A DNA stretch of 64,000 bases, from the sequence record NZ_CP084508.1. One strand, given 5' to 3'. The translations under genes were made by a program, and so were the position numbers. Each line of letters opens with the position of its first letter. Position 1 is the first letter of the stretch. Of the stretch, positions 1,361-33,734 are shown in pieces. Under the pieces are notes generated by a model that worked only from the letters and a program-made list of their open reading frames with translations, had not been told where the DNA came from and did no database searches. Source of the DNA: a plasmid.

Positions 1361-2144
1361 GCGTAGTGCAGTAGCGAAGTTTTTTACTAACCGGGTGACA
1401 AAAGCGCTGGAGATATCCTTGGCTCTGATGATGGCCTGTCAGAGTGCAATGGCTTCCCTGGCTGCAGACCAGATCCGCTATATCTTTCGCGGGGACAAGG
1501 ACGCACTGACCATCACGGTGACCAACAATGACAAGGAGCGGACCTTCGGTGGACAGGCATGGGTGGATAACATCGTGGAGAAGGACTCCCGCCCGACCTT
1601 TGTGGTGACACCGTCCTTTTTTAAGGTGAAGCCGAATGGTCAGCAGACACTACGTATCATCATAGCTTCGGATCATCTGCCGAAAGATAAGGAGTCGGTG
1701 TACTGGCTGAACCTACAGGATATTCCGCCGGCTCTGGATGGGAGTGGTATTGCGGTGGCACTGCGCACGAAGCTGAAGCTGTTCTACCGACCGAAAGCAC
1801 TGCTTGAAGGTCGCAAAGGGGCTGAAGAGGGTATCAGCCTGCAGAGCCGTCCGGATGGCAAAACCATGCTAGTGAACACCACGCCGTACATTTTTGCCAT
1901 TGGCAGCCTGCTGGATGGAAGCGGAAAGAAAATTGCCACGGACAATGAGGCAGCGCAGAAACTACTGATGTTTATGCCGGGTGATGAGGTGCAGGTGAAG
2001 GGAAATGTGGTGAAAGTGGACTCCCTGAATGACTGGGGAGATCTGCAAACCTGGAACATCAACCAGAAAAAACCGACATATTCCAGGCAGAGGACATCTA
2101 ATACATTAGCTAATGTGTCTGATAGATTAGTAGATAAAAAATAA
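1353..2144 (+). CDS. fimbrial periplasmic chaperone (PapD-like, classical pathway)
   Basis: The N-terminal region reads ...DQIRYIFRGDKDALTITVTNNDKERTFGGQAWVDN..., which is characteristic of PapD/FimC-fold chaperones. A usher-then-chaperone gene order is as in pap-type operons. The GTG start at 1353 overlaps the usher stop; the first ATG is later, around 1429. Confidence 0.75.
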   Translation: MNKRSAVAKFFTNRVTKALEISLALMMACQSAMASLAADQIRYIFRGDKDALTITVTNNDKERTFGGQAWVDNIVEKDSRPTFVVTPSFFKVKPNGQQTLRIIIASDHLPKDKESVYWLNLQDIPPALDGSGIAVALRTKLKLFYRPKALLEGRKGAEEGISLQSRPDGKTMLVNTTPYIFAIGSLLDGSGKKIATDNEAAQKLLMFMPGDEVQVKGNVVKVDSLNDWGDLQTWNINQKKPTYSRQRTSNTLANVSDRLVDKK

Positions 2145-2178
2145 TCACCCTCCGGTATACACAACAGAAGGGGAGTAA

Positions 2179-2700
2179 ATGACGAAAATAGTGATGGTAG
2201 CTGCCCTGACCTTAAGCGTGCTCAGTACTCACCCTGTACTGGCGGCTGAATACAGCGAGAAAATGCAGTACCTAGGAGTGGTGAACGGTCAGGTGGTGGG
2301 TAACAGTGTGTTGAAGGTGACCCGTACACCTAGCGACCCTGTGCTGTACCGGAGTAGATGTGCCCCTCTTCCTGAGAGCCTGACCATCCGCAGAGCAAAG
2401 GCCAGGGCGGCATCCAGTAGTATGGCATATATCACGGTGCAGCAAGCGCTGCCGAATAACGGGGAAGCACGTATCACCCTGAAGATCACCCTGATGGTTG
2501 ACGGAAAAAAAGAGGCATTCACAGCCAGACAACAGGGTGAGGATGTGGTGTTAACCGTGCCGAAGGCACATAGACAGGTTGAGTTAAGAACGGATACTCC
2601 AGCAGAGCTGGAAGTGCCAGTCAGCTACCGGGGAAATCTGCAGATAGCCCTGCAGGTTGAGGATGAAGGACTCACCTTCGACAAAATTGCAAAGCAATAA
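2179..2700 (+). CDS. secreted hypothetical protein inside the fimbrial operon (signal peptide, no recognisable pilin C-terminus)
   Basis: An RBS (GGGGAG) precedes the ATG and the N-terminus has a signal peptide (MTKIVMVAALTLSVLSTHPVLAAE). It is co-oriented and tightly spaced after the chaperone gene. Confidence 0.4.
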   Translation: MTKIVMVAALTLSVLSTHPVLAAEYSEKMQYLGVVNGQVVGNSVLKVTRTPSDPVLYRSRCAPLPESLTIRRAKARAASSSMAYITVQQALPNNGEARITLKITLMVDGKKEAFTARQQGEDVVLTVPKAHRQVELRTDTPAELEVPVSYRGNLQIALQVEDEGLTFDKIAKQ

Positions 2701-2901
2701 TTCCAGAATGGATCTGGCAGGTAAAGGGACTTAAGGGAATACCGTAAAATTATTCTCTGGATAAAAACAAAAAGAAGATTTTAGTGTAGCGCTATAAATA
2801 AGTCGTAAGGGAATAGCTTTGCGGCAATTCCGAAAAACAAGGATTACCGATATATAAGAACATTTCTTCGTCTTCTTATAAAACCGAAAGGAGTTCCTCT
2901 T

Positions 2902-3684
2902 ATGAAAAAGAATTTAATTACACTGACAGTGGCTATTTCCGCAGCAGTATCTGGCTCTGCTATGGCGTGGACTGCAAATAGTCTTGGAGGTTCTGTAGAG
3001 TTTGGTGGGACATTGACACCTGCGGATATAGTGACACCATGGGAGGTTTACATTGGCTCGCCTGTAAATAATATAAATGCAGATATAAAAAAAGGGAGTC
3101 ATCTGGTTGATATTCCTGTTGTTAGTCCTATTCCAATTCTGGGGATTCGTACTACCACATCATCACCAATCAAGGGACAACCGGGAATTTCTCCACAGAT
3201 TGACTTCCAAGGGACAGTAGATATTAGTAAAATAAAAGATAACGAAGCGGTATTTCATGTTGATGTAGTAGATGTTTCGAACTCTAAAGTAATTGGTATG
3301 TTATCCGCCCCGTTACTGGTTGCTGCTGAGTATTCTTACACTGGACGATATGATGGAGCTTATATGATGCATGCGCAAAATGAGGGAGATGCTTTCTTTG
3401 GCGGTTTACCGCCAAAAGAAGGAGGCATTTCTCCTAGCATTCGTTCTCGCATTGAAAACATTAGTCCTGATTTTGTTCGGAAATATAATAACCAAGGATT
3501 CCCTAATCCAAGAAAGGTATCTAACGCCTGGAACTTTGCTGATGGTGATTATTATATCAGTGCTTTTTACGGGGCAGGTATTGAGCAGGGAAAATTAATC
3601 ACCCTCACTCTTGATACCCCTATAACAACATCTGATTCCATTACTTGGAAAGCCTCTCTGCCAATAACTATTTCCTATCGGTAA
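2902..3684 (+). CDS. putative fimbrial minor subunit/adhesin (260 aa, pilin-like C-terminus ...ITISYR)
   Basis: It has a signal peptide (MKKNLITLTVAISAAVSGSAMA). The C-terminal beta-strand shows the pilin-like alternating pattern with a penultimate aromatic residue. An RBS (AAAGGAG) is present and it sits in the operon. Confidence 0.45.
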   Translation: MKKNLITLTVAISAAVSGSAMAWTANSLGGSVEFGGTLTPADIVTPWEVYIGSPVNNINADIKKGSHLVDIPVVSPIPILGIRTTTSSPIKGQPGISPQIDFQGTVDISKIKDNEAVFHVDVVDVSNSKVIGMLSAPLLVAAEYSYTGRYDGAYMMHAQNEGDAFFGGLPPKEGGISPSIRSRIENISPDFVRKYNNQGFPNPRKVSNAWNFADGDYYISAFYGAGIEQGKLITLTLDTPITTSDSITWKASLPITISYR

Positions 3685-3885
3685 TCTGTCTGTTAGATAT
3701 AGAAGAGTAAAGCGTAGCTCTGCAGGAGGCATTCATAACCGACATGCAATAAGTTTTTCCATATAAAAAACTTATTGCATGTCGGTTATAATTTACTTTC
3801 GATATTATAATCGGAATACATTCTCAGGTCTTGGTTTGCTTTTATTTTCTACATTTCATTTACACACCTGGATAAAATAGAGTGA

Positions 3886-4689
3886 ATGCTGATGAAAGTA
3901 ACGCGCCGTTATAAATACCATCTCTCCGCTCTGATAACAGTCGCTCTGTTTTCTTCGGCCGCACCTCACGCAGATATTCTTGACGGTGGAGAAATTCAGT
4001 TCAACGGACTCGTTACTGACGAAGCGCAGAAATGGTCCTGGCAAATAAGTACGCCTGGTCAGACCTGGGCAGTGGACATGGCCGATGCTCGAACGGAGAA
4101 CGGGCAGTTGGTTTTTGATTTGCGTGATAAAGGCACCTTATCGTTTCTGGAAGGCCATCTGCATGAGGTGGCAGAGCGCGGCGGCCCCGGATTCATGCCA
4201 TTTATTACCTTCGGCAACAGTGGGCAACCTTTTACCGTAACGGAGGGTGGTGATACCTCGGCACAACGTTTTCGCGCCTTTGTCCCAGTACGAGACCCGG
4301 AAACGGGGAGCGTATCGGGGCAGCTTTTTTTCACCCTGAATCAGGGGATAGCGGTCAGTGCTGGCAGACAGGAAGACGGAGCCCCTGTTCCAGCTGGCAT
4401 GTCACTGGTCAGTGGACAGAGTGTAACGGAGGTGCAGTCAAACAATCTATCACAGAAGCTGAAATCTCGACTCTCTTCCTTATTGCTGATGAATCAGAAT
4501 TTCGGAAGTGGCATGAGTGCATTGGATAACGGTCTGGTTATCAGTCAGGGGGTACTGGCTGACGGTCGTGTAAAGAACCTGGCTGCATCGTATGCCTCTG
4601 CGGTGTCTGATTTTGAGCTGCGTTTGTCAGCTGAAGACACACCGGCAGCGTGGCAGGCAGGGCTGAATGTGACGGTCACTGTACAATAA
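3886..4689 (+). CDS. putative fimbrial minor subunit/adhesin paralog (267 aa, C-terminus ...NVTVTVQ)
   Basis: It has a signal peptide and a pilin-like C-terminal strand. It is tandem with its neighbours. The start may be the ATG at 3892. Confidence 0.4.
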
Positions 4690-4715
4690 TGGACGCAAGG
4701 ATATAAGAAAGAGAA

Positions 4716-5480
4716 ATGAAAAAGGTGACGTTGTTTCTGTTCGCTTTCAGCCTCCAACCTTCCTGTGTACTGGCTTGGAATACACCGGGAGAGAATTTCA
4801 GTGGAGAGCTTAAGCTGGAAGGTCCGGTGACCAACACACGTAATCCGTGGGTGTGGAAAGTCGGGCCGGGAAATGAACGTCTGGAGGTTAAGCCAAAAGG
4901 AGACACTCATAACAAGGCGCAGAGGATGCCTGTTTCTCTGCCAGCAATGACGATATTGCTGGGAAAAACCACATTGACCACACCGACAAGGCATGAGGGA
5001 TGCTCCCCCAAAGTAATCTATGGGAAGGAGGTAGAAGATTTTTCCCTTACATGGCTCGGAACAGGGATAGCCGAAGTAACGCTTCCCGTAAGCGGTAACA
5101 ACAGTCTCCGGGTGGGGACATTTGTTTTCAGGATGCAGGTGGCGGCGGTTCTGCGGCACAGACAGGACGGGCAGGATATATACGCCAGTGTACATAATGA
5201 CCTGAATACGAATGGTCTTCCTGGAGAGGGGCGAACCATGCAAGCAGGTAACGTCCCGAGTGTGCTGCAAATGATGTTCAACGGGGAAGGCCCAAACTGG
5301 CTGCAGGACATGGTGGTGACCGATACAATAGGCCTGAGCCGTTACAACGATGCTTCTCTGCGCCAGGTGGAGGGAGTTTACGGTACCCAGATAGTGGCTG
5401 ACAGCGGTGAGTTACGTCTGTTCGGGGCGGTACCGGATCGCTGGCTGGCATCACTACCAATAAGTATTGAATATCAATAG
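4716..5480 (+). CDS. putative fimbrial minor subunit/adhesin paralog (254 aa, C-terminus ...PISIEYQ)
   Basis: It has a signal peptide (MKKVTLFLFAFSLQPSCVLA). Its C-terminal motif W-x-A-S-L-P-I-S-I-x-Y-Q parallels that of the ORF at 2902-3684. Confidence 0.4.
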   Translation: MKKVTLFLFAFSLQPSCVLAWNTPGENFSGELKLEGPVTNTRNPWVWKVGPGNERLEVKPKGDTHNKAQRMPVSLPAMTILLGKTTLTTPTRHEGCSPKVIYGKEVEDFSLTWLGTGIAEVTLPVSGNNSLRVGTFVFRMQVAAVLRHRQDGQDIYASVHNDLNTNGLPGEGRTMQAGNVPSVLQMMFNGEGPNWLQDMVVTDTIGLSRYNDASLRQVEGVYGTQIVADSGELRLFGAVPDRWLASLPISIEYQ

Positions 5481-5596
5481 AAAGGGGACTGTCCTGAATA
5501 TTATTCATCATCTGAAGTCCGGTATGTTTCCAGCACTATTTATCTGACCCCGGCCAGCACACAAACTGAGCCCCTAGTTATACCGTCCGGACATTA

Positions 5597-17397: not shown

Positions 17398-17999
17398 TCT
17401 ATCATCTCCTTTTTTCCTGCTTATTTAATTAGACTCAATTTGATTATTTTTTCACCTGATAATTCGCCACATAACAACCGTCAGAGTATCAATATTGATT
17501 TATAATGGCCACTTACAGATCCAGAATCATTCACATTTATTTTTGATCCAAAACCATAAATACTGGTATTGACATACCAGAAAATCTTCATTAATGCAAT
17601 AAATTTTCGATATCTAAATTAACCCTATCTTAGGAGCGATGAAGAGAATAGTTAGTCACTGGTCATGGCCGTTCTGGATTTCGTACTCTAATGGTTCTCC
17701 AGAGCTAGAAGAGAGTTCAGGTATTTTTATCCTATTAACTTCCTCCCTGAAGGTTAGTCTCCAAGGTTACCAGATTCGGTTTACTTTCTGCGGTTTTTAC
17801 GACAAAGGATGAATAGCCATGACACAATAACGACACCAGAAATACCGCTGATGCTGTACTTATGATCTAAATACCATTGGTATCAGCGTTGCTGAAGGTA
17901 CCTCCTTGAACCAATAGCTTGCCTTTCCCCCTAACCACTGGGCTAAACCTAACAATTGTAGAATGGTAGCAACACCGTAAATCGCCAGTTCTGTGGTGT

Positions 18000-20880
18000 G
18001 AATTGAACTATGCCGACGTTATACTGTTATAAAACATTTCGAGGTAATCAAAAATATTGCGATGGGCTTCTTCCCGAGTCCCATAGTTTTTTTCTTTAAT
18101 CCATTCACATTTCAGTAGCTGGAAAAAACCTTCTGCAACTGCGTTGTCATGACAGTTACCACGACGGCTCATACTGCCCTCCAGTCCGTGTGATTTCAGG
18201 AACGACTGCCACTCATGGCTTGTGTACTGACTACCTTGATCAGAATGAACCAGCACCTGTTTTTGGGGATTACATCGTCACATGGCCATCATAAGCACAT
18301 TCAGGACAATATCTTTGGTCATTCGGGCAGCCGATAACTTTGCGCAAGAACATGTCAACAACCACGGCCAGATACAGCCAGCCTTCGAGTGTTCGGAGTA
18401 GAGTAAGAGACAGGACGTGTCGGACTATTTCCCTGCATCTCCGAACCGGACGTGCACCTTTCAGCGCATCCGGCTCTCCGTTTAAACGCTGGCTAGTGCC
18501 ATTGCCACTTCCGGGTACCGTGATGTATTTCTAGCTTCCAGCCTCAGGTAAGGGTTATCTTCTGGCAATTGCCAACGGAATAGCTTCTTGCCTTGCCCTA
18601 ACAACCGGTAAAGTGCTTCACCGTTGAGCCTCCCGTAGTTGGTTATTACCAAATAAAACTTACGTTTTACTCTGACCTGGTTTCGGTGATTTACACCACC
18701 ACCTCATCAGGAATGCAATACCTTTACGATATTTTCGGGAGTAGACAGAACACCACGCGGTCAATATAACTGAATACTTTTGCTTTAAAATCAATAAACT
18801 GTTAGAACACAGCCCAGCCTTTCAGCTTCTGGTTGAATATCTCAACCATATCGATTTTGCTTTCTAAGCATTATGTTCGACAGCCGCGGATATTACACCA
18901 CCCAGCATACGCCTTCACTGGCTACCCGAAAGAGACCGACATCAATATGTCCCGCTTTGATTGTTTTCCACAGCAGAACCATGAAACGTAACTCACTGCT
19001 CCTGCGGCGTACGGTTTTCATCAGTAATCGATGAGGTACGGTGTCAAAACAGGTCACCGTCAATCACCCTGCGGCCCCGTGTCTCACCACAGTCTGTGTT
19101 GTTGTTCCGTTCAGGCCGGAAACCGTACGAAAGCGCATGAAAATCACTTTCCCATTCCCATATTAGCCCCCCTAGACATCAGCATGGCCCGTTGAATAAT
19201 ACGATCCCGCAACGTGGGGCTCCCCAACGGCCACTGTTTACCATTTCTTTTGGAAATGCAAACCCGCCTGGCGGACGACGGCTGGTAGTGGCCAGAGATT
19301 AATTCAACCCTAAGTCCTTGCAGTTCAGCAGCCAGCCTGGCCTGCAGCACAAATTTATTCACGCCATCAACACCGTGTGTATGAGCACCTTTTGATGAAA
19401 GCGTAATTCGTGTAGATTCAGCCAGCTATTCTGGCTGTGTTATCAGACGCCGCAACCGTTCAATCCGTCGGGACGGATCGGCTATTGCCCATGAGGCAAG
19501 CTTGCGTTGTATTTCGCTGATCATCAAAGGTCTTCACCTCATTGGATCAGGTAGCGTGCTCAGCAAACACATTTAAGCTGCCTCCCTTTGCCATGTAATG
19601 GGTTTTCCCCATCGCGGACTACTACGGAAGCTCCGCCAGCCAGCGCGTCATCGGAGCCATGCCTCCTTAACATCCGTCACTGACTTTTCCCGGTTTACCT
19701 GCCCGGACTCAAACATACTGAGGAGGCTGCCAGTCGCACTCTTTATCCTTGCTTGCTGCAAGGTGGTAGAAGTCAGCAACGCTGATCGTGATAGGCGCTG
19801 CTGACCGGTGCTTCGCATACATATCAAAACACCGTCGATCGGCCGTGCTTACGTATAACCACCAATCCCTCCCGCACGGCCTGTCAGATCACGTAGACCA
19901 TGGTGATATTTTCAACCCACAGAGGCGGATTAACGGGTTCATGTTCCTCAGCCTTTCAGTACTCAACCTTGAGGATCATCTTGGCTTTCGCCTCAATCTC
20001 CGTTGTCAGCGAGTTACATCACCCGGCGAGCATGCCGTAGGTCACTGCCGCTCGTCATCACACCCAACGGGATTGTTGGACTTTTCGTCATGAGTTACCG
20101 GTTCAATATTCCAGATAGACTCGTGGTTCATTTGAGCATTCATGCTCGCCCTAAACTCCAGGCACACTGTAAGTTATGTCCGTTATCCAACGTTCATCCG
20201 GTACTTCCAGATTGAACTGCCGCTGGCCGCTGGAGTCTGTTGGGTGTCACGATACTGGCCTCACATTTACGCGTTCGTGGGCTTCGATAGCCGGCCTAAG
20301 CTTTTCTCCCGGCACGCATCATGAGCCGCCAGAAACGGTTAATCCCGCATTGTTGCCCGCTATCTCTCAGGTCGTGATGGATCTTGCGATAGCCATAAAC
20401 GCAACCGTGCTCGGGCTCCAACCAGAACTGCTTGATTTGTCCAGCCAGCCTGAGATCCGCCTGATACCGTGGTGAAGGAGGCTGCTGAAGCCAGGTGTAA
20501 AACCCACTCGGATGAACATTCAGCCCCCGCCAGAGTAGACGAACAGGTCAACAACAGGAGTTGTCACGGATAAAGGCGTATCTCAATCGGACAGTTTTGC
20601 AAAGTACGCTGCAGCTTTTTTTATATGTCCCGTTCGTCAATAACCCGCTTCAGCTCATTCTGGAGTCGACGGATCTCGGCCTGAGCATCTGACTGCTCTT
20701 TGTTGGTGGAGGAGTCCAGCACGTACTTCTTTATCCAGGTATAAAGGTTGCAGGTAGTGATACCGAAACATGTTGCAACACTGGAAACAGAATGGACACG
20801 ATCAACAACCAGTTTGACAGCTTTCAATTTTAAACTCTTCAGGATAACGCTTACTGCTCATGTGCACCTCTCTTTAAGCC
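18000..20880 (-). mobile_element. IS3-family (IS3-group) element remnant whose orfB is interrupted by a group II intron
   Basis: orfA is at 20621-20827 (..VSSVATCFGITTCNLYTWIKKY..SSTNKEQSDAQAEIRRLQNELKRVIDERDI, continuing as ..LKKAAAYFAKLSD). The orfB N-terminal fragment runs to about 20170 (..LEVPDERWITDITYS). The orfB C-terminal half is at about 18008-18410 (EGWLYLAVVVDMF..., then ..HSDQGSQYTSHEWQSFLKSHGLEGSMSRRGNCHDNAVAEGFF..). Confidence 0.65.
18410..20167 (-). mobile_element. group II intron (degenerate intron-encoded protein) inserted in IS3 orfB between ..DITY and LRT.EGWLYLA
   Basis: On the minus strand a 5' GUGUG/GUGCC-like start lies next to the orfB break at about 20167. The intron-encoded protein starts at about 19522 (MISEIQRKLASWAIADPSRRIERLRRLITQPEWLAES..KGAHTHGVDGV..YQPSSARRVCISKRNGKQWPLGSPTLRDRIIQRAML, which are RT domain 0/1 motifs) and continues with stop-riddled RT domain 2-4 motifs (..CFDTVPHRLLMKTVRRR..) down to about 18700. 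A canonical 34-nt domain V (GAGCCGGATGCGCTGAAAGGTGCACGTCCGGTTC, with the AGC triad and a GAAA loop) lies at 18433-18466 on the minus strand, about 25 nt before the exon resumes. Confidence 0.7.
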
Positions 20881-21429
20881 ATTCTAAATGACTCTGAGGT
20901 GTCTGTTAAAACCATGGCGATTCAGCCATGCTGTGGTGGCTGGTGCTGATCTCCAGCTTTGTCATTACTAAAGTGCTAACTCTTTAACGACTGGCGTTTA
21001 TTGAGGTGTTCATATCCTGCTAGCATAACCACTCTATCAGCCTAGAGACTCACCACATTCGGCTGAGCCATCACATGGTAGTAAACTGCTGAGATACACA
21101 TCCATGTAAACCCACCAAGCAATGGCTCAGCCGAGCGTAGTGTAAGTGTAATACTTATATAAAATCCAGCAATATCAAACTGTTAGATAAATTACCCAAA
21201 CAACACATAACAAAATGTACGCACCGCACAATACTCCAACCCAAAAACCCAACTTCCCCATACTACAATCATGTTGCGATGTATCAATTATACTAATTTA
21301 AAAACAGTTATTGAAGAATGTCTATATCAATTTCGTTTTTGATTTACTCTTTTTTCATAAAAATAGTCATCGATAAAAAATGCTCAAATAAGAAAATCAG
21401 TTGTGATTCAGACGTGAGATGAACCAGCA

Positions 21430-21990
21430 AGCTGAGTCAGTTCCTCTCTTCTCCTCCCCACTCGGGATGAAACCACTCATCTAGTGATGAGATTTCACAG
21501 GCCTTAGTATAAGTACTCTAGCTTTAGCTCCACGTATTGTACTTTTTGAGAGCTCCGATTTTTCAGCTATCAGCCAACGCTGCGTTTCCCGACTTTTATG
21601 TATGGATAATGTAGTTATCCACACTGACACATCGCTTTAAGATGCTTTAACAGGCTGATAAATAAGGCTGAGCCTTTGCTGTTGCCGCCCACGTAGCTAA
21701 CTTTGCTCGTACCACAGAGCAGCACTCTGGCCAGATAGTATTTCTCATTCTGCCCAGGTATTACCACGCGTTTTTGTTGTCTTCGTACCTGCCAGTCTGT
21801 GCTGATTTTGGGATTAAGATGGATATCCACTTCATCTTCATAAAAGACGAGATTCTCTGCGCGACATTCGCCCAATATTTTATGGGTTACCGCACCTTTC
21901 TTATGAGGGTCGTAGATACACAGGGTTGTGTGCTGCCCTGTGCTACGCCAGACCCGCAGAGGGCAGCCAGCAGTGGAAGATAGATATTTT
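21430..21990 (-). pseudogene. IS630-family transposase fragment (divergent, DDE-domain part, frameshifted)
   Basis: ..ENLVFYEDEVDIHLNPKISTDWQVRRQQKRVVIPGQNEKYYLA..VSYVGGNSKGSALFISLLKHLKA.. matches the intact IS630-family copies elsewhere in the window. It then shifts frame (..VDNYIIHKSRETQRWL..). Confidence 0.5.
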
Positions 21991-22089
21991 TAATGTAAAT
22001 GTTTGTAACTTACTGAAGTTGCATCACAGTTGTATTATACAGAATTTTATACTTTTCCCTCACTGAGGATAAAATAAAAGAGGGGAAGA

Positions 22090-23511
22090 ATGAAATTATC
22101 ATTTAAATGGAAAAAGTTATTAGGGATAAGTGCTATTACGACAATCTTTTATGTATTACCACCACCAGGCGGGTTGTCTATTAACGGCTATCATTTATCT
22201 TTGTTATTCGTAGCAACTATTGCTGCCATAGTGCTAAATGTTATGCCTACAGGAGCCATAGCAATACTATCTATTGCAGTTTATTGTGTCACTTTACCTG
22301 TGGAGAAAATAGGCTCAGCAGCAATAAAAACAGAACTACATAATTTTAGTAATTCTTTAATTTGGCTGATTGTAATTGCTTTCATGATAGCGAAAGCATT
22401 TACTAAAACCGGTTTGGGTGAGCGAGTATCACTTATTCTGCTTAAGAAATTTGGCACATCATCATTAAAAATAGCCTACTGCATAGGTTTGGCTGACTAT
22501 ATACTGGCCCCAGCCACACCTAGTAATACAGCAAGATTTGCAATAACGTCACCAATAGCGAATGGTTTAGCTAAAACCATAGCTCCAGAGGATAAAAAAC
22601 TTGGCGAGTTTTTAATAAGTAATGCATCAGCAATGAACGATGCATCAGCAGTTGGTTTTAGTACCGGCTTTGCTGGCAACCTAGCACTCGTTGGAATAGC
22701 TTCAACTTTACTAGGAATTCATTTGACTTTTTTAGAGTGGACGTACTATCTATTACCGCCATCAATAGCTTTGTTTATAATTATACCATTTATATTATAT
22801 TACTTTATCTCTCCAAATACAAAAAAAACCCCTGACGCACCAAAATTTGCTAAAGCAAGGCTTTGTGAACTAGGAAAAATCACACTACCAGAAATATTAC
22901 TGTCTATAGTTTTCTTATTACTAGTGGTTATGTGGATCGTAGGTCCATTACTAAACTTAGATGCTACAAGCGCTGCATTTATAGGCTTGTCAGTAATGCT
23001 TATGCTTGGGGTTCTAAGTTGGAATGATGTGAAATCTGAATCAAGTGCTTGGGATACACTTATTTGGTTTTCTGTTTTAATGGGAATGGCTGATAACTTG
23101 AGAAAACTTGGTGTTGTAAAATGGCTTGGTGATGGAATTTCGTCACTCTTAGCTAATGTCATGAGTGGAGCATCACCAGTTTTATTTTTACTTGTTTTGA
23201 TGTTGTTTTTCCTAATAACATCTTATTTGTTCGCATCAGGAACAGCAAAGATAGTAGCGCTTGGTGGAGTGATGATTGGATCATTATTATCACTCCATGT
23301 GCATCCAATTATAGCCGTTCTTTCTATTGCAGGAATAATGAACATTGGTTGTAACCTAACAACTTACTCTCATGCTAGAAATCCTATTGCACTAGGATAT
23401 GGATACCATTCCCCTAGTCGCTGGATGGTTAATGGATTGATTATAGGATTGTCTGGATTTATTATTTTTATGACATCTGGTTTAATATGGTGGTCAATAT
23501 TAGGACTTTAG
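22090..23511 (+). CDS. polytopic membrane transporter, probably DASS/SLC13-type (divalent anion:Na+ symporter) or ArsB/NhaD-superfamily permease
   Basis: It is 473 aa with about 12 TM segments. It has a PSNTAR hairpin-tip motif like DASS SNT motifs. The GC is low (~35%), it has an RBS, and it is flanked by IS and intron debris. Confidence 0.5.
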   Translation: MKLSFKWKKLLGISAITTIFYVLPPPGGLSINGYHLSLLFVATIAAIVLNVMPTGAIAILSIAVYCVTLPVEKIGSAAIKTELHNFSNSLIWLIVIAFMIAKAFTKTGLGERVSLILLKKFGTSSLKIAYCIGLADYILAPATPSNTARFAITSPIANGLAKTIAPEDKKLGEFLISNASAMNDASAVGFSTGFAGNLALVGIASTLLGIHLTFLEWTYYLLPPSIALFIIIPFILYYFISPNTKKTPDAPKFAKARLCELGKITLPEILLSIVFLLLVVMWIVGPLLNLDATSAAFIGLSVMLMLGVLSWNDVKSESSAWDTLIWFSVLMGMADNLRKLGVVKWLGDGISSLLANVMSGASPVLFLLVLMLFFLITSYLFASGTAKIVALGGVMIGSLLSLHVHPIIAVLSIAGIMNIGCNLTTYSHARNPIALGYGYHSPSRWMVNGLIIGLSGFIIFMTSGLIWWSILGL

Positions 23512-23639
23512 CTACAAACATTATTAACAACCCAGTACCGTCGGTGAATCGTGAACAAGAAGGTTTAGGGCGAGAGTACGGTTGAAGCGTGGAAATTTCG
23601 AAGCCAGCGGACGGCATGCTTGAGGATACCAACTGTTAC

Positions 23640-24560
23640 ATCGATAGACTCATCTAGTAAATGCAGCTACAAGTGCTGCAACCGTTGATTGATCCGATAT
23701 TATCTGATTTCAGTTATGGTCTCCGACCGGACTGCAGCTCGCACAACGCGGTGCTACAAGCACAGGAAAGTTTTCGGGGAGATCTTGAAAAGTTTTTTGA
23801 TCGAGTTTATCACGACATCCTGATGGGGCGATTGGTGAAACAAATCTCCGATGAGGCCATGCTACAGCAGATTCGCCGTTATTTGTAGACTAAGCTCATA
23901 GCGAATAGCGTGGTTGGTTCGTGATCAGGGGATCACCGTAAGGTGGCCGCTGCTGTTGGTCAATGTGCTGCTAAAACTGCAATAGCGCGGACATCGTTTC
24001 ACTCGCCATTTCGCAGCTAGAAAGCAGAAGAACTGCCTAGGCTGGATGCGCAAGATGTATGAAAGTTGCATCTGCGCGTGAACGAGAAGAAAAACAAAGA
24101 GTGCCCAGCTTCGGATGGGCGTTCCTTATCTACAAACCTACGGCGGTGGATGGGAAGCTCTGTCAAGATTACAGTAACTCCCAAGGCTCCCGGCTCGTTC
24201 AAGCAGCATGTCCGCGACATCACCAGACGTATCGACAGCTAAGACCTGCCTCAGATTACCGAAAAAATACGGGAATACATCTCGGGTAGGAGATCCTACT
24301 TCCGTTTGGCACAAACACAGCAGATCTTTAAAAATCTGGATTCAGAGATACGCTACCGGCTCCAAGCTATTCAACTCAAGTAATGGAGCACAGGAAGACG
24401 GTGTACATCACAACATTGATGTCTCACGAGGGCCGCACATATTGCGGGAGGCACAGGGTACTAGTGGCGACACCAGCGAGGCTGGGGTGAACTGACGCTC
24501 TCGGCTTCCCCCTACTTGCATGACCTCAACTTCTCGACCCGCTCGGTACGGCTACTACTT
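23640..24560 (+). pseudogene. second group II intron-encoded RT/maturase remnant (RT domains 2-7 and X domain, N-terminus missing, frameshifted)
   Basis: ..LQPLIDPILSDFSYGLRPDCSSHNAV..DLEKFFDRVYHDILMGRLVKQISDEAMLQQIRRYL (RT2-3). Then ..RGHRFTRHFAA.. with a degenerate YADD, ..VKITVTPKAPGSFKQHVRDITRR.. and ..REYISGRRSYFRLAQTQQIFKNLDSEIRYRLQAIQLKQW (thumb/X domain) follow in shifted frames. Confidence 0.55.
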
Positions 24561-24892
24561 ACTGTGTGGTGTAGTAGGGATATAACCTTGTGCTACCCTC
24601 CTCCTATGCCGATCAACACCGAACCGTCCTAAAGGACTGTCCTCAAATAATAGTGCCCTCGCAAGGTGAGGGTAGAATTTCTGCTCTGCCCCCCTAATGC
24701 TAACTGAAGATAACCCAGGCAGGCGCTAGACAAAAAAAACGCCGCATAAGCAGCGAGCTAAAACATCAAGGAGTCAATATTGACGCAAAATCGAACTCAT
24801 TCAAAAATGAGCCAGTCAGCTATGATTCTAGTCAGTCTACCACAAAATAAAAAACAGCCAATCCTAGTGGATAATATTTTTTACTCGGGAAT

Positions 24893-26059
24893 TTCATTCT
24901 ATAACTAACTAATCCTAATACCGCTACACTTTAGCCAGCCCATGTTTCCCTCCGGGGAATGGGCTAACGGTATCCATAAAGTGACGAACCTTCTTCAACA
25001 GTTGCCACATTGAACGGCACTGGTGATTTCGGGTTATTGTTTCATGAAGCGCCTGCCACAACCGTTCGACATGGTTGACCCACGGCGAGTACACCGGCTG
25101 ATAAATCACCCTGAACTTCGGGTTTGCTTTCAGCCAGCGCAACGTTTCACGGCTTTTGTGGGTGATGTAGTTATCGACAATGAGCGTAATCGTTTTTGCC
25201 CGCCGGTATGTCACCTTAAGATGTTTTAACAGTATGATAAATAAGGATGAACCTTTACTGTTTCCACCCACGTAGCTGACTTTTCCCGTACCACTGTGCA
25301 GCGCACCGGCAAGATAGTACTTTTCATTCTGGCCCGGTGTGACAACGCGCTTTTGCTGCCCGCGTGACTGCCAGTCAGCCCCGATTTTCGGGTTGAGATG
25401 AATATCCACTTCATCTTCGTAAAATACGGGGTTTTCCGCACTGCATTTCGTCAGCGCTATCATGGATAGCGGCCATTTTTTCTTCTTTGTGTGGGTCACG
25501 GATACGCAGTGTCGGCGCGGCTCTGCGCCATACCAGTCCGGCAACAGGTAACCATCGCCGGATGGTTGAAGCATGTAGCGGGCAACCGGTGACATCACGG
25601 ATTTTTATCGCCAGCAGTTCGGTACTCCAGCGGGAACGCTGATAACCGAAATCGCCAGGAGAATGCTTAACAAGCTCACGCAGCAATGCGCAAATATGTT
25701 CGAACGGCCAGCGCCTCCCACGTCTTGATGGTAATGACTTCAGGCCTTCAGCACCAGACAGTGTGAGCCAGTTAATCCAACGACAAATCGATGAACGGGC
25801 ACAGCAGAGCGTTCTGGCTACATGACTGACGGTATCACCACGATGCAGCATCAGCATGGCGGTGAGCCGCCGGGCGTGGTGTTTGTCCTTTGTTTTATGG
25901 ATCGTTTTCTGCATCAGGCGTCGTTCGGTTCTGGGGATTGGTGCTATGATCGGCATGGCTCAGTCCGGCTGGTGATTTGGGATATTCCGCGATTGATCAG
26001 ATCGCATAAACCGGACTGAGTTCCCCCTGAGTGATCTACTATTTCGAGCAGTTATTTAG
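24893..26059 (-). mobile_element. IS630-family insertion sequence, copy A (about 1.17 kb, transposase in two overlapping ORFs)
   Basis: One end is CTAAATAACTGCTCGAAATAGTAGATCAC... at about 26059 (reverse-complemented). The other end is partly mutated, near 24895. The transposase N-terminal HTH ORF is at 25411-25956 and the DDE ORF is at 24924-25598. They are joined at an A6 tract near 25476-25481. The copy is near-identical to copy B. Confidence 0.75.
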
Positions 26060-27221
26060 ATAGGGATCTCTCGAACAGCGGATTTTCCATGCAATAAAAA
26101 TATAAGCATTGCAGTCACAAAAAACGAAAAATAAAACACAAAAAAAGAAACACCACAAGATGTTATCACAATATTACATATAAATTATCAAGAAGTTTCT
26201 TAAGCGTTCGACATTGTTTCACAACTACTCCACTAAAATTTATAAAGTTAAACTCAGATATCAAGATAACATCATGGAGATTTCACTCTGAAATTTTAAT
26301 AAAAAACCATTTAAATTCATTTTGTTAAAACAAAAATCACGTGGAGAAACATTACAAAGTTTCATAAGTTAAATTACTATACTACCAATATCTGCGGCCC
26401 CTCTCACAAGAGTAATCAGCAAAACCACACAATGATAGTTATTGAATATTTGAAGGCGAAAGGCATATCAAAGTTCGCAGTGAATATAGTCTACCTGTCG
26501 AGATACAATGTCCGGGAAAAATAAGGCTTAAACAGCTCAACAGTGGATCAGGATGATAAAAAATGCGTTATTAGTTTGAATATAAGCAACACTGACATGG
26601 ATGTGAGTTGCTGGTAGCCCCACCACTAGGATATACCAATCAATTTTGCTCATACTTTATGTCGCATAGTAAAAAACTCTCATAGAGTAAATTATGTGTA
26701 CAACTAGGGGGGCAGTTGAAGAAAAGACACATCATTTAGAACATGGAGGGCATAAAAATATTCATTGTAAATGACCAGTGGTTGGCCTTTTAGGGAGGGA
26801 GAATATCACAATTTACCTACTTCATAATTAAGAGTCGGTACATTCACATCGCGAATACTGGTAATTACTGGTATCTTTTTTGTGATAAAGTTGGCTTTTT
26901 TATTAGCTCTTTTTTGTTGTAATAATAAAGTACTTGCAGTATTGGATGCTTTAGCAACTTTTTGATGATTTGTATGTGATACAGCGACTATTTTTGCCGG
27001 GCGGAGTCTCGGCACTTTTTTTTTGTTGTTTCGTTTTTCGCTTTTTGTATATAAGGATGTTATATGTGATAATGTCATACATTTAGAATACCATGCATGA
27101 CGACCAATGGTGATATTTTTCTTGTAAATGATGTTTGCAACTATTGTTTAATACATTTTTTCTATTATAATAGTACGGCCTGTCTAGATGTAGCAACATG
27201 TTAGAGTTAATGATGATTTAG

Positions 27222-27479: not shown

Positions 27480-29230
27480 CGGTGTCATATTGTTCAGTGA
27501 TTCATGCGGACGTTCACAGTTATATTCTTATAACCATTTCTCCGTGATTTCCCGCACTTCATTCAGCGTTCTGAACAGATAAAAACCGAGTATTTCTGTA
27601 CGGTATGTCCTGTTAAAACGCTTGATGAAAGCATTCTGCGTCGGCTTACCCGGTTGGATAAACTCCAATTTTACTGCGTGCCTCTCTGCCCATTTAGCCA
27701 GCGCCAGAGAGATAAATTCCGGACCATTATCCATGCGCAGCATGGACGGATAGCCACGGTTTGCCGCGATCCTGTCGAGAACACGAACGACTCGCTGAGC
27801 TGGCAGGTTCAGATTGATTTCAATCGACAACGCCTCACGGTTAAAGTCATCAACGACATTGAACGTGCGAAAACGACGGCCACAGGCCAGTGCATCATGC
27901 ATAAAATCGACAGACCAGCTCTGGTTTAGCGCCTCCGGTGTAGCCAGTGGCGAGGGATTACGCACCGGCAACCGCTGTTTGCCCTTACGGCGAAAATTCA
28001 GCTTCAGCAGACAATAAATACGGTGGAGCTTTTTGTGATTCCACGAATATCCCTGCCGCCGCAGGACCTGGAAAAGCTTCGGAAAACCATATCGTGGGTA
28101 TCGCTCAGCCACAGCCTGCAGGGCGGCAATAACGGGTTCATCACGTGTGGTATCCGGGCGGTAATGGTAAACCGTTCTGCTCAGGTTCAGACTCCAGCAA
28201 GCCTAACGGATACTGAGTCCAAATGTCGTTATCAGATAAGTGACCAGATCACTCTTACGTGCTGATTTTAAAGTTTTTTGATAACGTCTTTCCGTGCCCG
28301 GTTCTCAAGGCTCAGGCTGGCAAACATCTGTTTGAGACGTCGGTTCTCGTCCTCAAGATCCTTGACCTTTTTAATATCAGAAGCCTCCATGCCGCCGTAT
28401 CTGGACTTCCTGTTAATGGGATGGACTACCTCCTCCCGCTGCGGTTAACTGTACGAAATGCGCTCACCAGGAGAATCACCATGAATATCGTATTTCTGGG
28501 TATTGATCTGGCTAAAAATGTTTTTTAGCTCTGCGGGTTAAACCAGGCCAGCAAACCAGTTTATACGAAACGAACTGGCCGAAAATAATTGCTCCAGACG
28601 CTGGCAAATATTCCTGCATGTCTGATTGGGATCGAAGCATCCAACGGGGCATTTTACTGGTAGCGTGAGTTTGAGAAGCTGGGGCACAAAGTAAAGGTCA
28701 TCAGTCCTCAGTATGTAAAACCCTTTGTCCGCGGGCAAAAAAATGATGGTAATGATGCACAGGCCATCGCAGTGGCTCTGATGCAACCGACAATGCAGTT
28801 CGGGCCACCAAAAAGCCCCGAACAGCAGGATATCCAAGCTTTACATCGGGCAAGGCAGCGTATTGTCAATCGCTACACAGGTTGCACCTGCACAATCGGA
28901 ACCTGATTTTTATACTGGCCTCAGAGGCCGTCCAGTTGTTGAGACGACTGTGCGCAAATTACCCATTTGGGCACAGATTTTCCTGATGCCGGATAGATGT
29001 AAGCAACAACCCGAAACCAAATTCAGTACTTGCAAAACGGAGGTAGTCCATAGATGTAGTTGGTGGCTTCAGAGATGCCGACCTCCCGGCAGACATCTTT
29101 AACGTTCGTCCGGCTTCAACCGACTTAATCACAGCGATGATCTGATGCGCAGTAAAACGGGCTTTACGCATAGCGATCTCCTTCGTTGGTAGATTGATTA
29201 TGCCGGATTTTCTCTAAATGTGAATGGCAC
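27480..29230 (-). mobile_element. IS3-family (IS407-like) element remnant; orfA interrupted by an IS110-family 5' fragment
   Basis: orfB is at 27528-28112 (..YPRYGFPKLFQVLRRQGYSWNHKKLHRIYCLLKLNFRRKGKQRLPVRNP..WSVDFMHDAL.., the DDE core). The orfA C-terminus is at about 28290-28440 (..YGGMEASDIKKVKDLEDENRRLKQMFASLSLENRA..). The orfA N-terminus is at 28959-29171 (MRKARFTAHQIIAVIKSVEAGRTL.., matching the IS407-family KRFTEQQIIGFLKEAEAG). Confidence 0.6.
28470..28880 (+). pseudogene. IS110-family transposase 5' fragment (stop codons), embedded within the IS3-family orfA
   Basis: MNIVFLGIDLAKNVF*..GIEASNGAFYW*REFEKLGHKVKVISPQYVKPFVRGQKNDGNDAQAIAVALMQPTMQF..QQDIQALHRARQRIVNRY shows canonical IS110 N-terminal motifs with in-frame stops. 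Confidence 0.6.
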
Positions 29231-32501: not shown

Positions 32502-32539
32502 GCAATGTTGCACCTGAGAGATGAATTCAGATTCCCAGT

Positions 32540-33699
32540 CTAAATAACTGCTCGAAATAGTAGATCACTCAGGGGGAACTCAGTCCGGTTTATGCGATCT
32601 GATCAATCGCGGAATATCCCAAATCACCAGCCGGACTGAGCCATGCCGATCATAGCACCAATCCCCAGAACCGAACGACGCCTGATGCAGAAAACGATCC
32701 ATAAAACAAAGGACAAACACCACGCCCGGCGGCTCACCGCCATGCTGATGCTGCATCGTGGTGATACCGTCAGTCATGTAGCCAGAACGCTCTGCTGTGC
32801 CCGTTCATCGATTTGTCGTTGGATTAACTGGCTCACACTGTCTGGTGCTGAAGGCCTGAAGTCATTACCATCAAGACGTGGGAGGCGCTGGCCGTTCGAA
32901 CATATTTGCGCATTGCTGCGTGAGCTTGTTAAGCATTCTCCTGGCGATTTCGGTTATCAGCGTTCCCGCTGGAGTACCGAACTGCTGGCGATAAAAATCC
33001 GTGATGTCACCGGTTGCCCGCTACATGCTTCAACCATCCGGCGATGGTTACCTGTTGCCGGACTGGTATGGCGCAGAGCCGCGCCGACACTGCGTATCCG
33101 TGACCCACACAAAGAAGAAAAAAATGGCCGCTATCCATGATAGCGCTGACGAAATGCAGTGCGGAAAACCCCGTATTTTACGAAGATGAAGTGGATATTC
33201 ATCTCAACCCGAAAATCGGGGCTGACTGGCAGTCACGCGGGCAGCAAAAGCGCGTTGTCACACCGGGCCAGAATGAAAAGTACTATCTTGCCGGTGCGCT
33301 GCACAGTGGTACGGGAAAAGTCAGCTACGTGGGTGGAAACAGTAAAGGTTCATCCTTATTTATCATACTGTTAAAACATCTTAAGGTGACATACCGGCGG
33401 GCAAAAACGATTACGCTCATTGTCGATAACTACATCACCCACAAAAGCCGTGAAACGTTGCGCTGGCTGAAAGCAAACCCGAAGTTCAGGGTGATTTATC
33501 AGCCGGTGTACTCGCCGTGGGTCAACCATGTCGAACGGTTGTGGCAGGCGCTTCATGAAACAATAACCCGAAATCACCAGTGCCGTTCAATGTGGCAACT
33601 GTTGAAGAAGGTTCGTCACTTTATGGATACCGTTAGCCCATTCCCCGGAGGGAAACATGGACTGGCTAAAGTGTAGCGGTATTAGGATCAGTTATTTAG
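32540..33699 (+). mobile_element. IS630-family insertion sequence, copy B (about 1.16 kb), in inverted orientation relative to copy A
   Basis: The terminal repeats are CTAAATAACTG... and ...CAGTTATTTAG. The ORFs are at 32643-33140 (HTH) and 33137-33676 (DDE), joined at an A7 tract (33118-33124). A -1 shift on A_AAA_AAT would fuse them into a transposase of about 344 aa. Confidence 0.8.
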
Positions 33700-33734
33700 A
33701 ATAAATAAACAAAGAACAAAGCCAATCAAACATA

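Follow-up and report, generated by a model that had tools for sequence, protein, structure and literature searches.

A degenerate E.c.I4-type group II intron within a decayed IS3-family element on an Edwardsiella tarda plasmid

In the 64-kb stretch of plasmid DNA analyzed here (the window), the orfB reading frame of an IS3-family element breaks off and is taken up again about 1.76 kb later, which raises the question of what interrupts it and whether the interrupting sequence still functions. A first-pass annotation had placed a group II intron inside this orfB, its domain V intact-looking and its intron-encoded protein (IEP) dead, and Rfam, nucleotide alignment, and tblastn all agreed with that description. 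We confirmed that the minus-strand segment from 20167 to 18398 (1,770 nt) is a group II intron interrupting an IS3-family orfB (Table 1). Furthermore, with a probability of roughly 0.93, we regard this E.c.I4-type intron relic in a decayed IS3-family element on an Edwardsiella tarda plasmid as an inert fossil, neither a working system nor a new one.

Table 1. Coordinates of the intron, its parts, and the host element in the window
Feature	Position	Strand	Basis
Degenerate IS3-family insertion sequence (about 1,177 bp without the intron)	17978..20924	-	Alignment to intron-free elements; Pfam
orfA remnant (HTH_Tnp_1)	20590..20861	-	tblastn with intact relative's orfA; Pfam PF01527, E = 2.1e-08
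5' exon, N-terminal part of orfB to ..WITDITY	20168..20600	-	tblastn with intact relative's orfB
Degenerate group II intron, E.c.I4-like (putative bacterial class A)	18398..20167	-	Alignment to L001, L002, L003
Ribozyme domain I	19687..20167	-	Consensus fold of intact copies
Orphaned 3' strand (GUGAUC) of domain I long-range pairing	19887..19892	-	Partner loop deleted
Predicted domain II	19635-19684	-	RNAalifold consensus of intact copies mapped to window
Predicted domain III	19580-19631	-	RNAalifold consensus of intact copies mapped to window
Pseudogene of intron-encoded RT/maturase	18482..19512	-	tblastn to E.c.I4 IEP; indel list
425-nt deletion junction	18864..18865	-	Alignment, tblastn, indel list
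Domain V, 34 nt (GAGCCGG...CCGGTTC)	18443..18476	-	Rfam RF00029, alignment, fold
Eroded domain VI and 3' splice site	18398..18442	-	Folds, alignment
3' exon, rest of orfB (rve core, IRTLEGWLYLA...)	18005..18397	-	tblastn; alignment to L008; Pfam

Identity and boundaries of the intron

The Rfam model RF00029 (Intron_gpII) matched the minus strand at 18398-18478 with 54.3 bits (E = 6.8e-08 for the whole window), above its gathering score of 40 and 10.6 bits below the 64.9 bits obtained for an intact relative. To set the boundaries, we aligned the intron with three full-length relatives and also with a related IS copy that lacks the intron and is continuous across the exon junction. The intron begins with GTGTGCC from 20167 and finishes with ..CTCTTACTCTAC at 18398, and its termini (GUGUG at 20167-20163 and ..UAC at 18400-18398) have the 5' GUGYG and 3' AY form of group II introns. 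The GUGYG-like 5' end annotated in the first pass was therefore correct, whereas the 3' end moves from 18410 to 18398; similarly, domain V exists but lies 10 nt away from the position given to it (18433-18466), and the break of orfB at DITY stands, although the gene resumes with IRTLEGW and not LRT.EGW. When the exons are joined, the product reads ..W I T D I T Y / I R T L E G W L Y L A; the junction divides the Ile codon as A/TC, and the intron lies in sense orientation relative to orfB.

The window intron was 88.5%, 85.0%, and 84.2% identical at the nucleotide level to L001, L002, and L003, respectively, and it is 1,770 nt long compared with 2,270 nt in the intact copies, the alignment containing 15 indels. 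Among full-length relatives, a variant on the E. coli plasmid pTQ17-tet(X4) is the closest (88.5%). L002 is E.c.I4, since it matches the E24377A copy, listed as E.c.I4-2b in Table S3 of PMC3522654, at 99.9% identity and shares its ltrA protein (WP_001189123.1). The Zimmerly database requires at least 90% nucleotide identity for the same intron name (PMC3522654), and the window intron falls short of this both to the E.c.I4 copy and to the nearest variant. In E-value mode over 17800-25200, no Rfam D1-D4 class model matched; intact E.c.I4 likewise matches none of them, which means that Rfam is unable to class this lineage.

A different kind of RT element (a retron, a DGR, or an Abi-type RT) might merely resemble a group II intron, and it would be in keeping with this that the stitched IEP remnant gave just a sub-threshold RVT_1 match (19.5 bits; cutoff, 29.6) and no GIIM match, but the homology at the nucleotide level runs end to end along annotated ltrA-carrying introns, including domains I-III, V, and VI, RF00029 scored above threshold, and the E.c.I4 IEP was found by tblastn with E values of about 1e-70 and 1e-45. 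This reading has a negligible probability and is already refuted. Pfam searches of the individual small ORFs of the intron returned no matches, and we based the homology of the IEP remnant on tblastn and nucleotide alignment, not on Pfam.

We also considered whether the lesions described below could be sequencing or assembly artifacts of a single record whose true element is intact, given that error-prone assemblies often show frameshifts, a general possibility only. Four independent assemblies (FDAARGOS, CP082940.1; NCTC, UFYK01000002.1; a 2012 draft, AFJG01000135.1; and the Logan assembly of SRR16259835) agreed at 99.98-100% over 19090-24967, a comparison that includes the 5' 1,078 nt of the intron and leaves out its 3' 690 nt (18398-19089). 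Besides, a 425-nt deletion and a substitution divergence of about 12-15% cannot come from read errors. The artifact reading is effectively refuted for the 5' 1,078 nt and highly improbable overall.

Decay of the encoded protein and the ribozyme

The closest intact relatives encode a 502-residue RT and X protein with Pfam RVT_1 and GIIM domains. In the window, this domain IV ORF is present as a pseudogene, to which the intact E.c.I4 IEP aligned by tblastn in six pieces (residues 1-113, 118-162, 164-233, 370-408, 416-446, and 448-502) spread over three frames, with 64-87% amino acid identity and in-frame stops. The start codon has changed from ATG to ATA (19512-19510), and the remnant contains at least four in-frame stops, at least five frame changes, and indels of 30, 8, 14, 6, and +7 nt. 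The 425-nt deletion takes out IEP residues 234-369, which cover RT5-RT7 (including YADD) and the beginning of domain X, while beyond it the X (maturase) domain retains its C-terminal half, the C-terminal tail is still present, and the alignment runs through residue 502, the C terminus of the endonuclease-less E.c.I4 IEP. The remnant is thus stop-riddled, as annotated in the first pass, but it has not lost everything past RT4. Substitutions private to the window were spread evenly over the codon positions (24/25/30; P = 0.68), which implies neutral decay, and this distribution differs from that among the intact copies (32/23/109; chi-square P = 9e-05). A second RT/X-domain remnant, noticed earlier near 23640-24560, was recovered by tblastn with 29% identity at 23643-23852; its stitched translation gave 38.1 bits for GIIM (cutoff, 23) and 19.3 bits for RVT_1, and no second domain V was found beside it by Rfam in E-value mode over 17800-25200.

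Domain I has lost 9 nt between 20054 and 20055 and 7 nt between 19987 and 19988. Counted on a structure that was itself taken from the intact copies and so favors them in the comparison, 15 of the 195 predicted pairs in domains I-III are lost in the window compared with 0-4 in the intact copies. The hairpin at E.c.I4 positions 96-119, formed in 25 of 25 relatives, is lost, and the long-range 6-bp pairing 190-195 x 292-297 has its 5' strand deleted. The latter is paired in 100% of cells in the 25 relatives, with compensatory changes in four of the six pairs, and the window is the sole row with a gap in the alignment.

Domain V has the 34-nt helix, AGC triad, 2-nt bulge, and GNRA loop that define it, is 100% identical to that of E.c.I4, and was predicted by folding to form its helix, in accordance with the first-pass annotation. 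Domain VI, on the other hand, has lost the 5' strand of its basal helix to a 5-nt deletion and carries a U.C mismatch and a 1-nt deletion; GGNGAGGAGAG is kept in 20 of 20 relatives. In folds of the intact relatives, the branch-point A bulges between an 11-bp helix and the 4-bp basal helix, whereas in the window it lies in a 7-nt single-stranded tail and is no longer bulged. These folds gave -30.9 kcal/mol for the window versus -48.2 and -45.4 kcal/mol for intact copies. In group II introns, the domain VI helix holds a bulged branch-point A at a distance of 7-8 nt from the 3' splice site, and the loss of this feature here reflects decay rather than non-membership of group II introns.

These results bear on whether the element is a non-autonomous but functional intron, in which case its RNA would be competent for splicing or mobility and a class A maturase would come from elsewhere in the E. 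tarda genome. The domain V identical to that of an active relative, the intact 5' GUGUG and 3' AC termini, and the region around the IEP start, which still aligns with intact copies, would all fit such an intron, and the 180 of 195 domain I-III pairs that are formable, together with this domain V, may allow some residual catalytic activity, e.g., hydrolytic splicing. However, three structural elements conserved in all 20-25 relatives are destroyed, and the private substitution load of the ribozyme part (6.2%) is about the same as that of the dead ORF (7.9%). At the ribozyme load, a 34-nt domain V would stay unchanged by chance in about 11% of cases (0.938^34); its perfect state is thus compatible with chance (P about 0.1) and should not be taken as a sign of activity. 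Moreover, the ORF remnant is untidy, with stops and frameshifts, unlike streamlined ORF-less introns; within the 64-kb window there is a single intron copy and no intact class A IEP (tblastn with the E.c.I4 IEP); and the best 80 of 311 E.c.I4-like loci in species-representative genomes include none from Edwardsiella. The host gene is also dead, which leaves no selective reason for splicing. We therefore consider a functional intron very unlikely. The first pass had rightly called the IEP dead and had left splicing to a trans-acting maturase; such splicing is unlikely, given damage to the RNA at three elements that every relative examined has kept, and it would restore nothing because the host transposase gene, too, is a pseudogene.

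The host element and a proposed history

The left end of the IS is TGAATCGCCATGG, and its right end is eroded and approximate, the leftover GGCGATTTA being similar to the IRR of a relative. The terminal repeats were absent among the top inverted repeats of a repeat finder; since they are too short or eroded for it, the ends rest on alignment to a relative. The element is single copy in the window, is 83.7% identical to intron-free E. coli elements annotated "IS3 family transposase, programmed frameshift," and carries HTH_Tnp_1 and rve on its ORF fragments (Pfam), as expected of the IS3 family, in which a programmed -1 frameshift links orfA (HTH) to orfB (rve DDE) between terminal inverted repeats. 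Its orfA remnant is frameshifted near codon 10 and contains an in-frame stop, and the tblastn match (76.7% identity over residues 10-82) lies in a frame differing from that of the start codon. The 5' exon runs in two frames with stops (orfB residues 1-130 and 129-170 by tblastn); the 3' exon has an 11-nt deletion and one stop and has lost about 25 C-terminal residues, although its stitched translation still scored 61.1 bits for rve over profile positions 20-102. The host transposase gene is a pseudogene, with both orfA and orfB disrupted. Accordingly, 17978-20924 is best annotated as one IS3-family pseudogene and one group II intron pseudogene, not as many small ORFs.

The insertion point lies 1 nt after the Tyr codon of TDITY in orfB. 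In all 29 relatives checked, the insertion site is at the D-x-T-Y codons of rve-type transposase genes, and their 3' exons begin at about rve profile position 20. E.c.I4 is a bacterial class A intron (PMC3552965) that homes into IS629, IS911, ISEc16, and ISEc31, i.e., IS3-like transposases (PMC3522654). Thus, a mobile element within a mobile element is not unusual here but the very habit that defines this intron lineage. We infer target recognition by the window intron from conservation of the site only. A candidate EBS1/IBS1 interaction of UGUGGGUU (E.c.I4 263-270) with the last 8 exon nucleotides, to which it is complementary (chance, about 0.02), was rejected because it did not covary with exon changes in 29 relatives and RNAalifold puts UGUGGGUU in a helix.

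Based on these observations, we propose that a class A, endonuclease-less E.c.I4-type intron retrohomed in sense orientation into an IS3-family transposase gene, at the D-x-T-Y codons with which the rve catalytic core begins, and that the IS and the intron then both lost function and drifted neutrally. The decay may have taken place in E. tarda, where the present carrier is the roughly 146-kb, low-GC plasmid of strain ATCC 15947, or earlier than the arrival of the plasmid or the IS there. Today, the IEP cannot be made, the interrupted transposase gene is broken, and the ribozyme lacks a conserved domain I hairpin, one strand of a conserved long-range pairing in domain I, and the domain VI basal helix presenting the branch-point A. 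Retrohoming followed by neutral decay to an inactive element very probably suffices as the whole explanation; that the internally deleted intron is instead excised from IS transcripts by hydrolysis or a helper maturase and persists as a non-autonomous retroelement seems very improbable.

Relation to known introns

Plasmid records contained no match to domains I-III above the 90-95% band, and PLSDB held no close full-length relative; plasmid matches of at least 99% identity are probably short conserved stretches such as domain V. An exact scan for the 34-nt deletion junction in 185,579 species-representative genomes gave no match, and the representative E. tarda genome evidently does not carry this plasmid sequence.

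E.c.I4 (= S.f.I1, 99% identical) is a class A intron of Escherichia and Shigella. It shares with the window intron its architecture, its ends (GUGUGCC... and ...CUCUUACUCUAC), its domain V, and its sense insertion after the Tyr codon of TDITY in an IS3-family orfB, and the IEP remnant aligns as far as residue 502, the C terminus of the E.c.I4 IEP, which has no endonuclease domain (PMC3522654, PMC3552965). In contrast to E.c.I4, the window intron is 500 nt shorter, is degenerate in both IEP and ribozyme, and resides on an E. tarda plasmid rather than in Escherichia or Shigella. Inactivated fragments and ORF-disrupted copies of E.c.I4 have been cataloged in Enterobacteriales, e.g., in E. coli MG1655 and SMS-3-5 and in Shigella; they occur on large mobile elements, singly per genome, and were read as relics inactivated before or without proliferation (Leclercq and Cordaux 2012, PMC3522654). 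Those relics are >90% identical to E.c.I4 or are truncated fragments, whereas the window intron retains both ends, is deleted internally, and is more diverged. That survey, in which E. ictaluri was the only Edwardsiella species, recorded no intron in the genus (PMC3522654).

RmInt1 (class D) of Sinorhizobium meliloti in ISRm2011-2 and E.c.I3 in IS679 are endonuclease-less bacterial introns that have their natural homing sites within an IS transposase gene and commonly leave degraded remnants (PMC1802570, PMC4496777, PMC3522654); they differ from the window intron in intron class, IS family, and target motif. The present locus thus adds a diverged, full-ended, internally deleted E.c.I4-type relic on an E. 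tarda plasmid, and its value is mainly one of annotation. Under the selection-driven extinction model, mobile DNA brings group II introns into enterobacteria, where they target IS elements and usually end up lost or inactivated (PMC3522654), a picture that this relic fits.

Identity and boundaries of the intron

A single Intron_gpII match (domains V and VI; 18398-18478; 54.3 bits against a gathering score of 40; E = 6.8e-08) was detected by Rfam in the whole 64-kb window, and no second one appeared around the locus even at relaxed thresholds. This match, a four-way intron alignment, and an intron-free related IS bear out the first-pass annotation, which had proposed a group II intron inside an IS3-family orfB. 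The alignment placed the 5' end, described as GUGYG-like, at GTGTGCC (20167), as annotated, and the 3' end (...CTCTTACTCTAC) at 18398 rather than 18410. Domain V is present, although at 18443-18476 instead of 18433-18466. The joined exons read ...ACTTACA|TCCGAACACTC, and the intron-free IS (83.7% identity) aligned in one piece across this junction. The translation of the joined exons, W-I-T-D-I-T-Y-I-R-T-L-E-G-W-L-Y-L-A, agrees with the annotated stop of orfB at ..DITY, whereas the frame resumes as I-R-T-L-E-G-W, not LRT.EGW. A non-intron reverse transcriptase element is contradicted by the Rfam match, the four-way alignment, and tblastn matches to the intron-encoded protein (IEP) of E.c.I4. 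The observation is real, its interpretation was correct, and the element is ordinary, a degenerate representative of the E.c.I4 lineage that occupies the IS3 target canonical for this lineage.

Features of the intron locus and plasmid (A2, alignment of the window intron with 25 relatives)
Feature	Position	Strand	Basis or effect
Group II intron, 1770 nt	20167..18398	-	Rfam and alignment of relatives
9-nt deletion	between 20054 and 20055	-	hairpin 3' strand lost (E.c.I4 positions 96-119)
7-nt deletion	between 19987 and 19988	-	loop GAUCAC(U) lost
6-bp domain I pairing	A2 columns 205-210 with 307-312 (E.c.I4 190-195, 292-297)		covariation
5-nt deletion	between 18442 and 18443	-	repeat GGAGAGGAGAG collapsed
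Host IS3-family element, ~1177 bp without intron	~17978-20924		alignment to 83.7% relative
Second group II IEP remnant, dead, separate from E.c.I4-like intron	23643 to ~24500	+	tblastn and Pfam
CopA-like antisense RNA, 74.2 bits	61065-61155	+	replication control

The second, unrelated RT/X-domain remnant that had been reported was also recovered. It shares 29% amino acid identity with the E.c.I4 IEP, is spread over three frames, and scored 38.1 bits for GIIM and 19.3 bits for RVT_1 as a stitched translation. Its nearest DNA relatives (65-71% nucleotide identity) are unannotated E. coli plasmid stretches and a Polaromonas ltrA. No domain V for it was recognizable by Rfam within 17800-25200, and the remnant is unable to supply a maturase.

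Decay of the intron and its host element

The IEP of an intact relative has 502 residues with RVT_1 and GIIM domains. In the window, tblastn recovered six pieces distributed over three frames (residues 1-113, 118-162, 164-233, 370-408, 416-446, and 448-502), with at least four in-frame stops and the start codon mutated from ATG to ATA, in accordance with the earlier description of a recognizable but stop-riddled, dead protein. A clean 425-nt deletion (junction 18864/18865) removed residues 234-369, and with them RT5-RT7, including the YADD active site, and the beginning of domain X. Further deletions measure 30, 8, 1, 2, 14, and 6 nt, and two insertions measure 7 and 1 nt. In the window copy, private substitutions fell evenly on codon positions 1, 2, and 3 (24, 25, and 30; p = 0.68 against uniformity), whereas differences among intact copies were concentrated at position 3 (32, 23, and 109; p = 2e-18); the distributions differ from each other (p = 9e-05). 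This pattern is characteristic of neutral decay.

Besides, three conserved ribozyme elements are broken. The hairpin at E.c.I4 positions 96-119, which has 6 to 11 bp of differing sequence in 25 of 25 relatives (-7 to -17 kcal/mol), is not formed by the window segment (-3.8 kcal/mol). The lost loop GAUCAC(U) pairs in 25 relatives with GUGAUC 100 nt downstream; this 6-bp long-range pairing is paired in 100% of cells and carries compensatory double changes in four of six pairs (25 sequences). A 15-pair structure comprising it and the two helices enclosing its loop exceeded 500/500 shuffles and all slid controls in covariation score. The loop strand of the 6-bp pairing is gapped only in the window row of A2, which keeps the orphaned partner strand at 19887-19892; the pairing is a domain I kissing interaction of the alpha-alpha' or beta-beta' type. 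The repeat GGAGAGGAGAG, kept in 20/20 relatives, is predicted to form in intact copies a 4-bp basal helix of domain VI, so that the branch A bulges out; the predicted window fold instead has the branch A within a 7-nt unpaired tail and a U.C mismatch in the upper helix. Predicted stability is -30.9 kcal/mol, versus -48.2 and -45.4 kcal/mol for intact copies, and the Rfam score is 10.6 bits below that of E.c.I4. Of 195 predicted domain I-III pairs, 15 are lost in the window versus 0 to 4 in intact copies, a comparison biased toward the latter, from which the structure was derived.

Of the domain V/VI fold expected by the first-pass annotation, then, domain V stands, with the sequence of E.c.I4, and the basal helix of domain VI does not. 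Nor is the "textbook" domain V evidence of constraint, since a 34-nt stretch would remain unchanged by chance in ~11% of cases at the private substitution rate of the non-coding ribozyme parts (46/738, 6.2%), which is about that of the dead ORF (79/997, 7.9%).

The host IS, present as a single copy within the window, was compared with the intact transposase found in its 83.7%-identical relative. Its orfA carries a frameshift near codon 10 and one stop; its orfB is scattered across three frames and has at least three stops and an 11-nt deletion. Also lost are the final ~25 codons and a portion of the right end. With the transposase broken, splicing restores nothing. It is thus highly improbable that the intron still functions by complementation in trans, given this, the three broken ribozyme elements, and a ribozyme decaying about as fast as its dead ORF.

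Plasmid setting

The locus adjoins a 473-aa transporter gene, with identical flanks, in CP082940.1 (145,764 bp; in GCA_019933175.1), UFYK01000002.1, AFJG01000135.1, and one Logan assembly. GCA_019933175.1 and GCA_000264805.1 are Edwardsiella tarda FDAARGOS_1473 and ATCC 15947 (PMC11385721). Over 19090-24967, identity among the four assemblies is 99.98-100%. Sequencing errors therefore do not account for the lesions in the intron's 5' 1078 nt, which contradicts a sequencing or assembly artefact. The G+C content of the window (46%, versus 57.3% in the genome of a related E. tarda strain [PMC11385721]) and the CopA-like RNA, which marks an IncF-type replication control region, indicate a horizontally acquired plasmid.

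We also observed two inverted copies of an IS630-family element (DDE_3 and HTH ORFs; 24891-26069 and 32529-33706; 99.2% identical) and a further IS630-like fragment at ~21481-21875. An intact Na+/sulfate-symporter-like (CitMHS) gene (22090-23511) is bracketed by IS630 elements and the IS3/intron relic. The plasmid also carries a full-length, strong match to isrN, an Hfq-binding sRNA family (28127-28269, plus strand; 131 bits; E = 1.5e-28), and an F4 (K88)-like fimbrial operon (faeD/E/H/I-like; 1-5557, plus strand) ~80% identical to E. coli plasmid operons.

Target site and relationship to E.c.I4

The 5' exons end in GAY-NTN-ACN-TAY-N in 29/29 relatives examined (Escherichia, Legionella, Photobacterium, and Paraglaciecola among them), and further 5' exons with the D-x-T-Y motif include those of Rhizobium, Brucella, Nitrospirales, and Desulfarculaceae. 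The nucleotide just before the splice site can be any of the four bases (A/G/C/T). Ten 3' exons were translated, and in the four remote ones scanned against Pfam, as in the window's own, the 3' exon starts at about position 20 of the rve (orfB catalytic core) profile. Throughout the E.c.I4-like IEP clade (loci L010-L089, L001-L003, and L009; 66-100% amino acid identity), insertions into rve-type transposase genes follow the same codons (GAY NTN ACN TAY N|). The hosts are Enterobacterales, Legionella, Vibrionaceae, Alteromonadales, Rhizobiales, Nitrospirales, and Desulfarculaceae MAGs; the entire lineage therefore appears, from these sequences, to have specialized, across phyla, in a single conserved transposase motif.

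The best-supported origin, favored by the invariant site in 29/29 relatives, is reverse splicing, in which a class A intron ribonucleoprotein would have entered an IS3-family orfB within the sequence that encodes D-x-T-Y. IS and intron were then both inactivated and drifted, either in E. tarda or before transfer. Divergence from E. coli relatives is about equal (IS part, ~82-86% identity; intron part, ~85-88%), and this is consistent with the two having been inherited together.

The E.c.I4 lineage is very common. Megablast returned full-length relatives (82-86% identity; at least 80% of the query covered) in 123 plasmid and 83 E. coli records. In the top 30 records, every match is ~2466 bp long, versus 1973 bp in the query, and overlaps a gene annotated as "ltrA group II intron reverse transcriptase/maturase"; in those from E. 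coli, two IS3-family transposase pseudogene halves flank the match. Among 72,556 plasmid records, 1664 matched the domain I-III segment, at identities no higher than the 90-95% band, and 311 stretches of species-representative genomes encode an IEP relative, with Edwardsiella absent among the best 80. In pTQ17-tet(X4) and E. coli strain 2273-PO3, an IS30 copy (locus positions 1036-2187) additionally interrupts the intron-bearing IS3-family element, a three-level nesting of mobile elements.

The ltrA product of the chromosomal 2273-PO3 copy, WP_001189123.1, is also that of NC_009801:4848623-4850893, which is E.c.I4-2b (Leclercq and Cordaux, Table S3, PMC3522654), with 99.9% identity between the two introns. 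The intact relatives are thus copies of E.c.I4 or close variants of it. E.c.I4 (= S.f.I1) belongs to bacterial class A and lacks an endonuclease (PMC3552965). The window intron shares 85.0% nucleotide identity with E.c.I4 and 88.5% with the closest full-length variant, carried by E. coli plasmid pTQ17-tet(X4), and under the 10% divergence rule for intron naming (quoted in PMC3522654) it warrants a name of its own.
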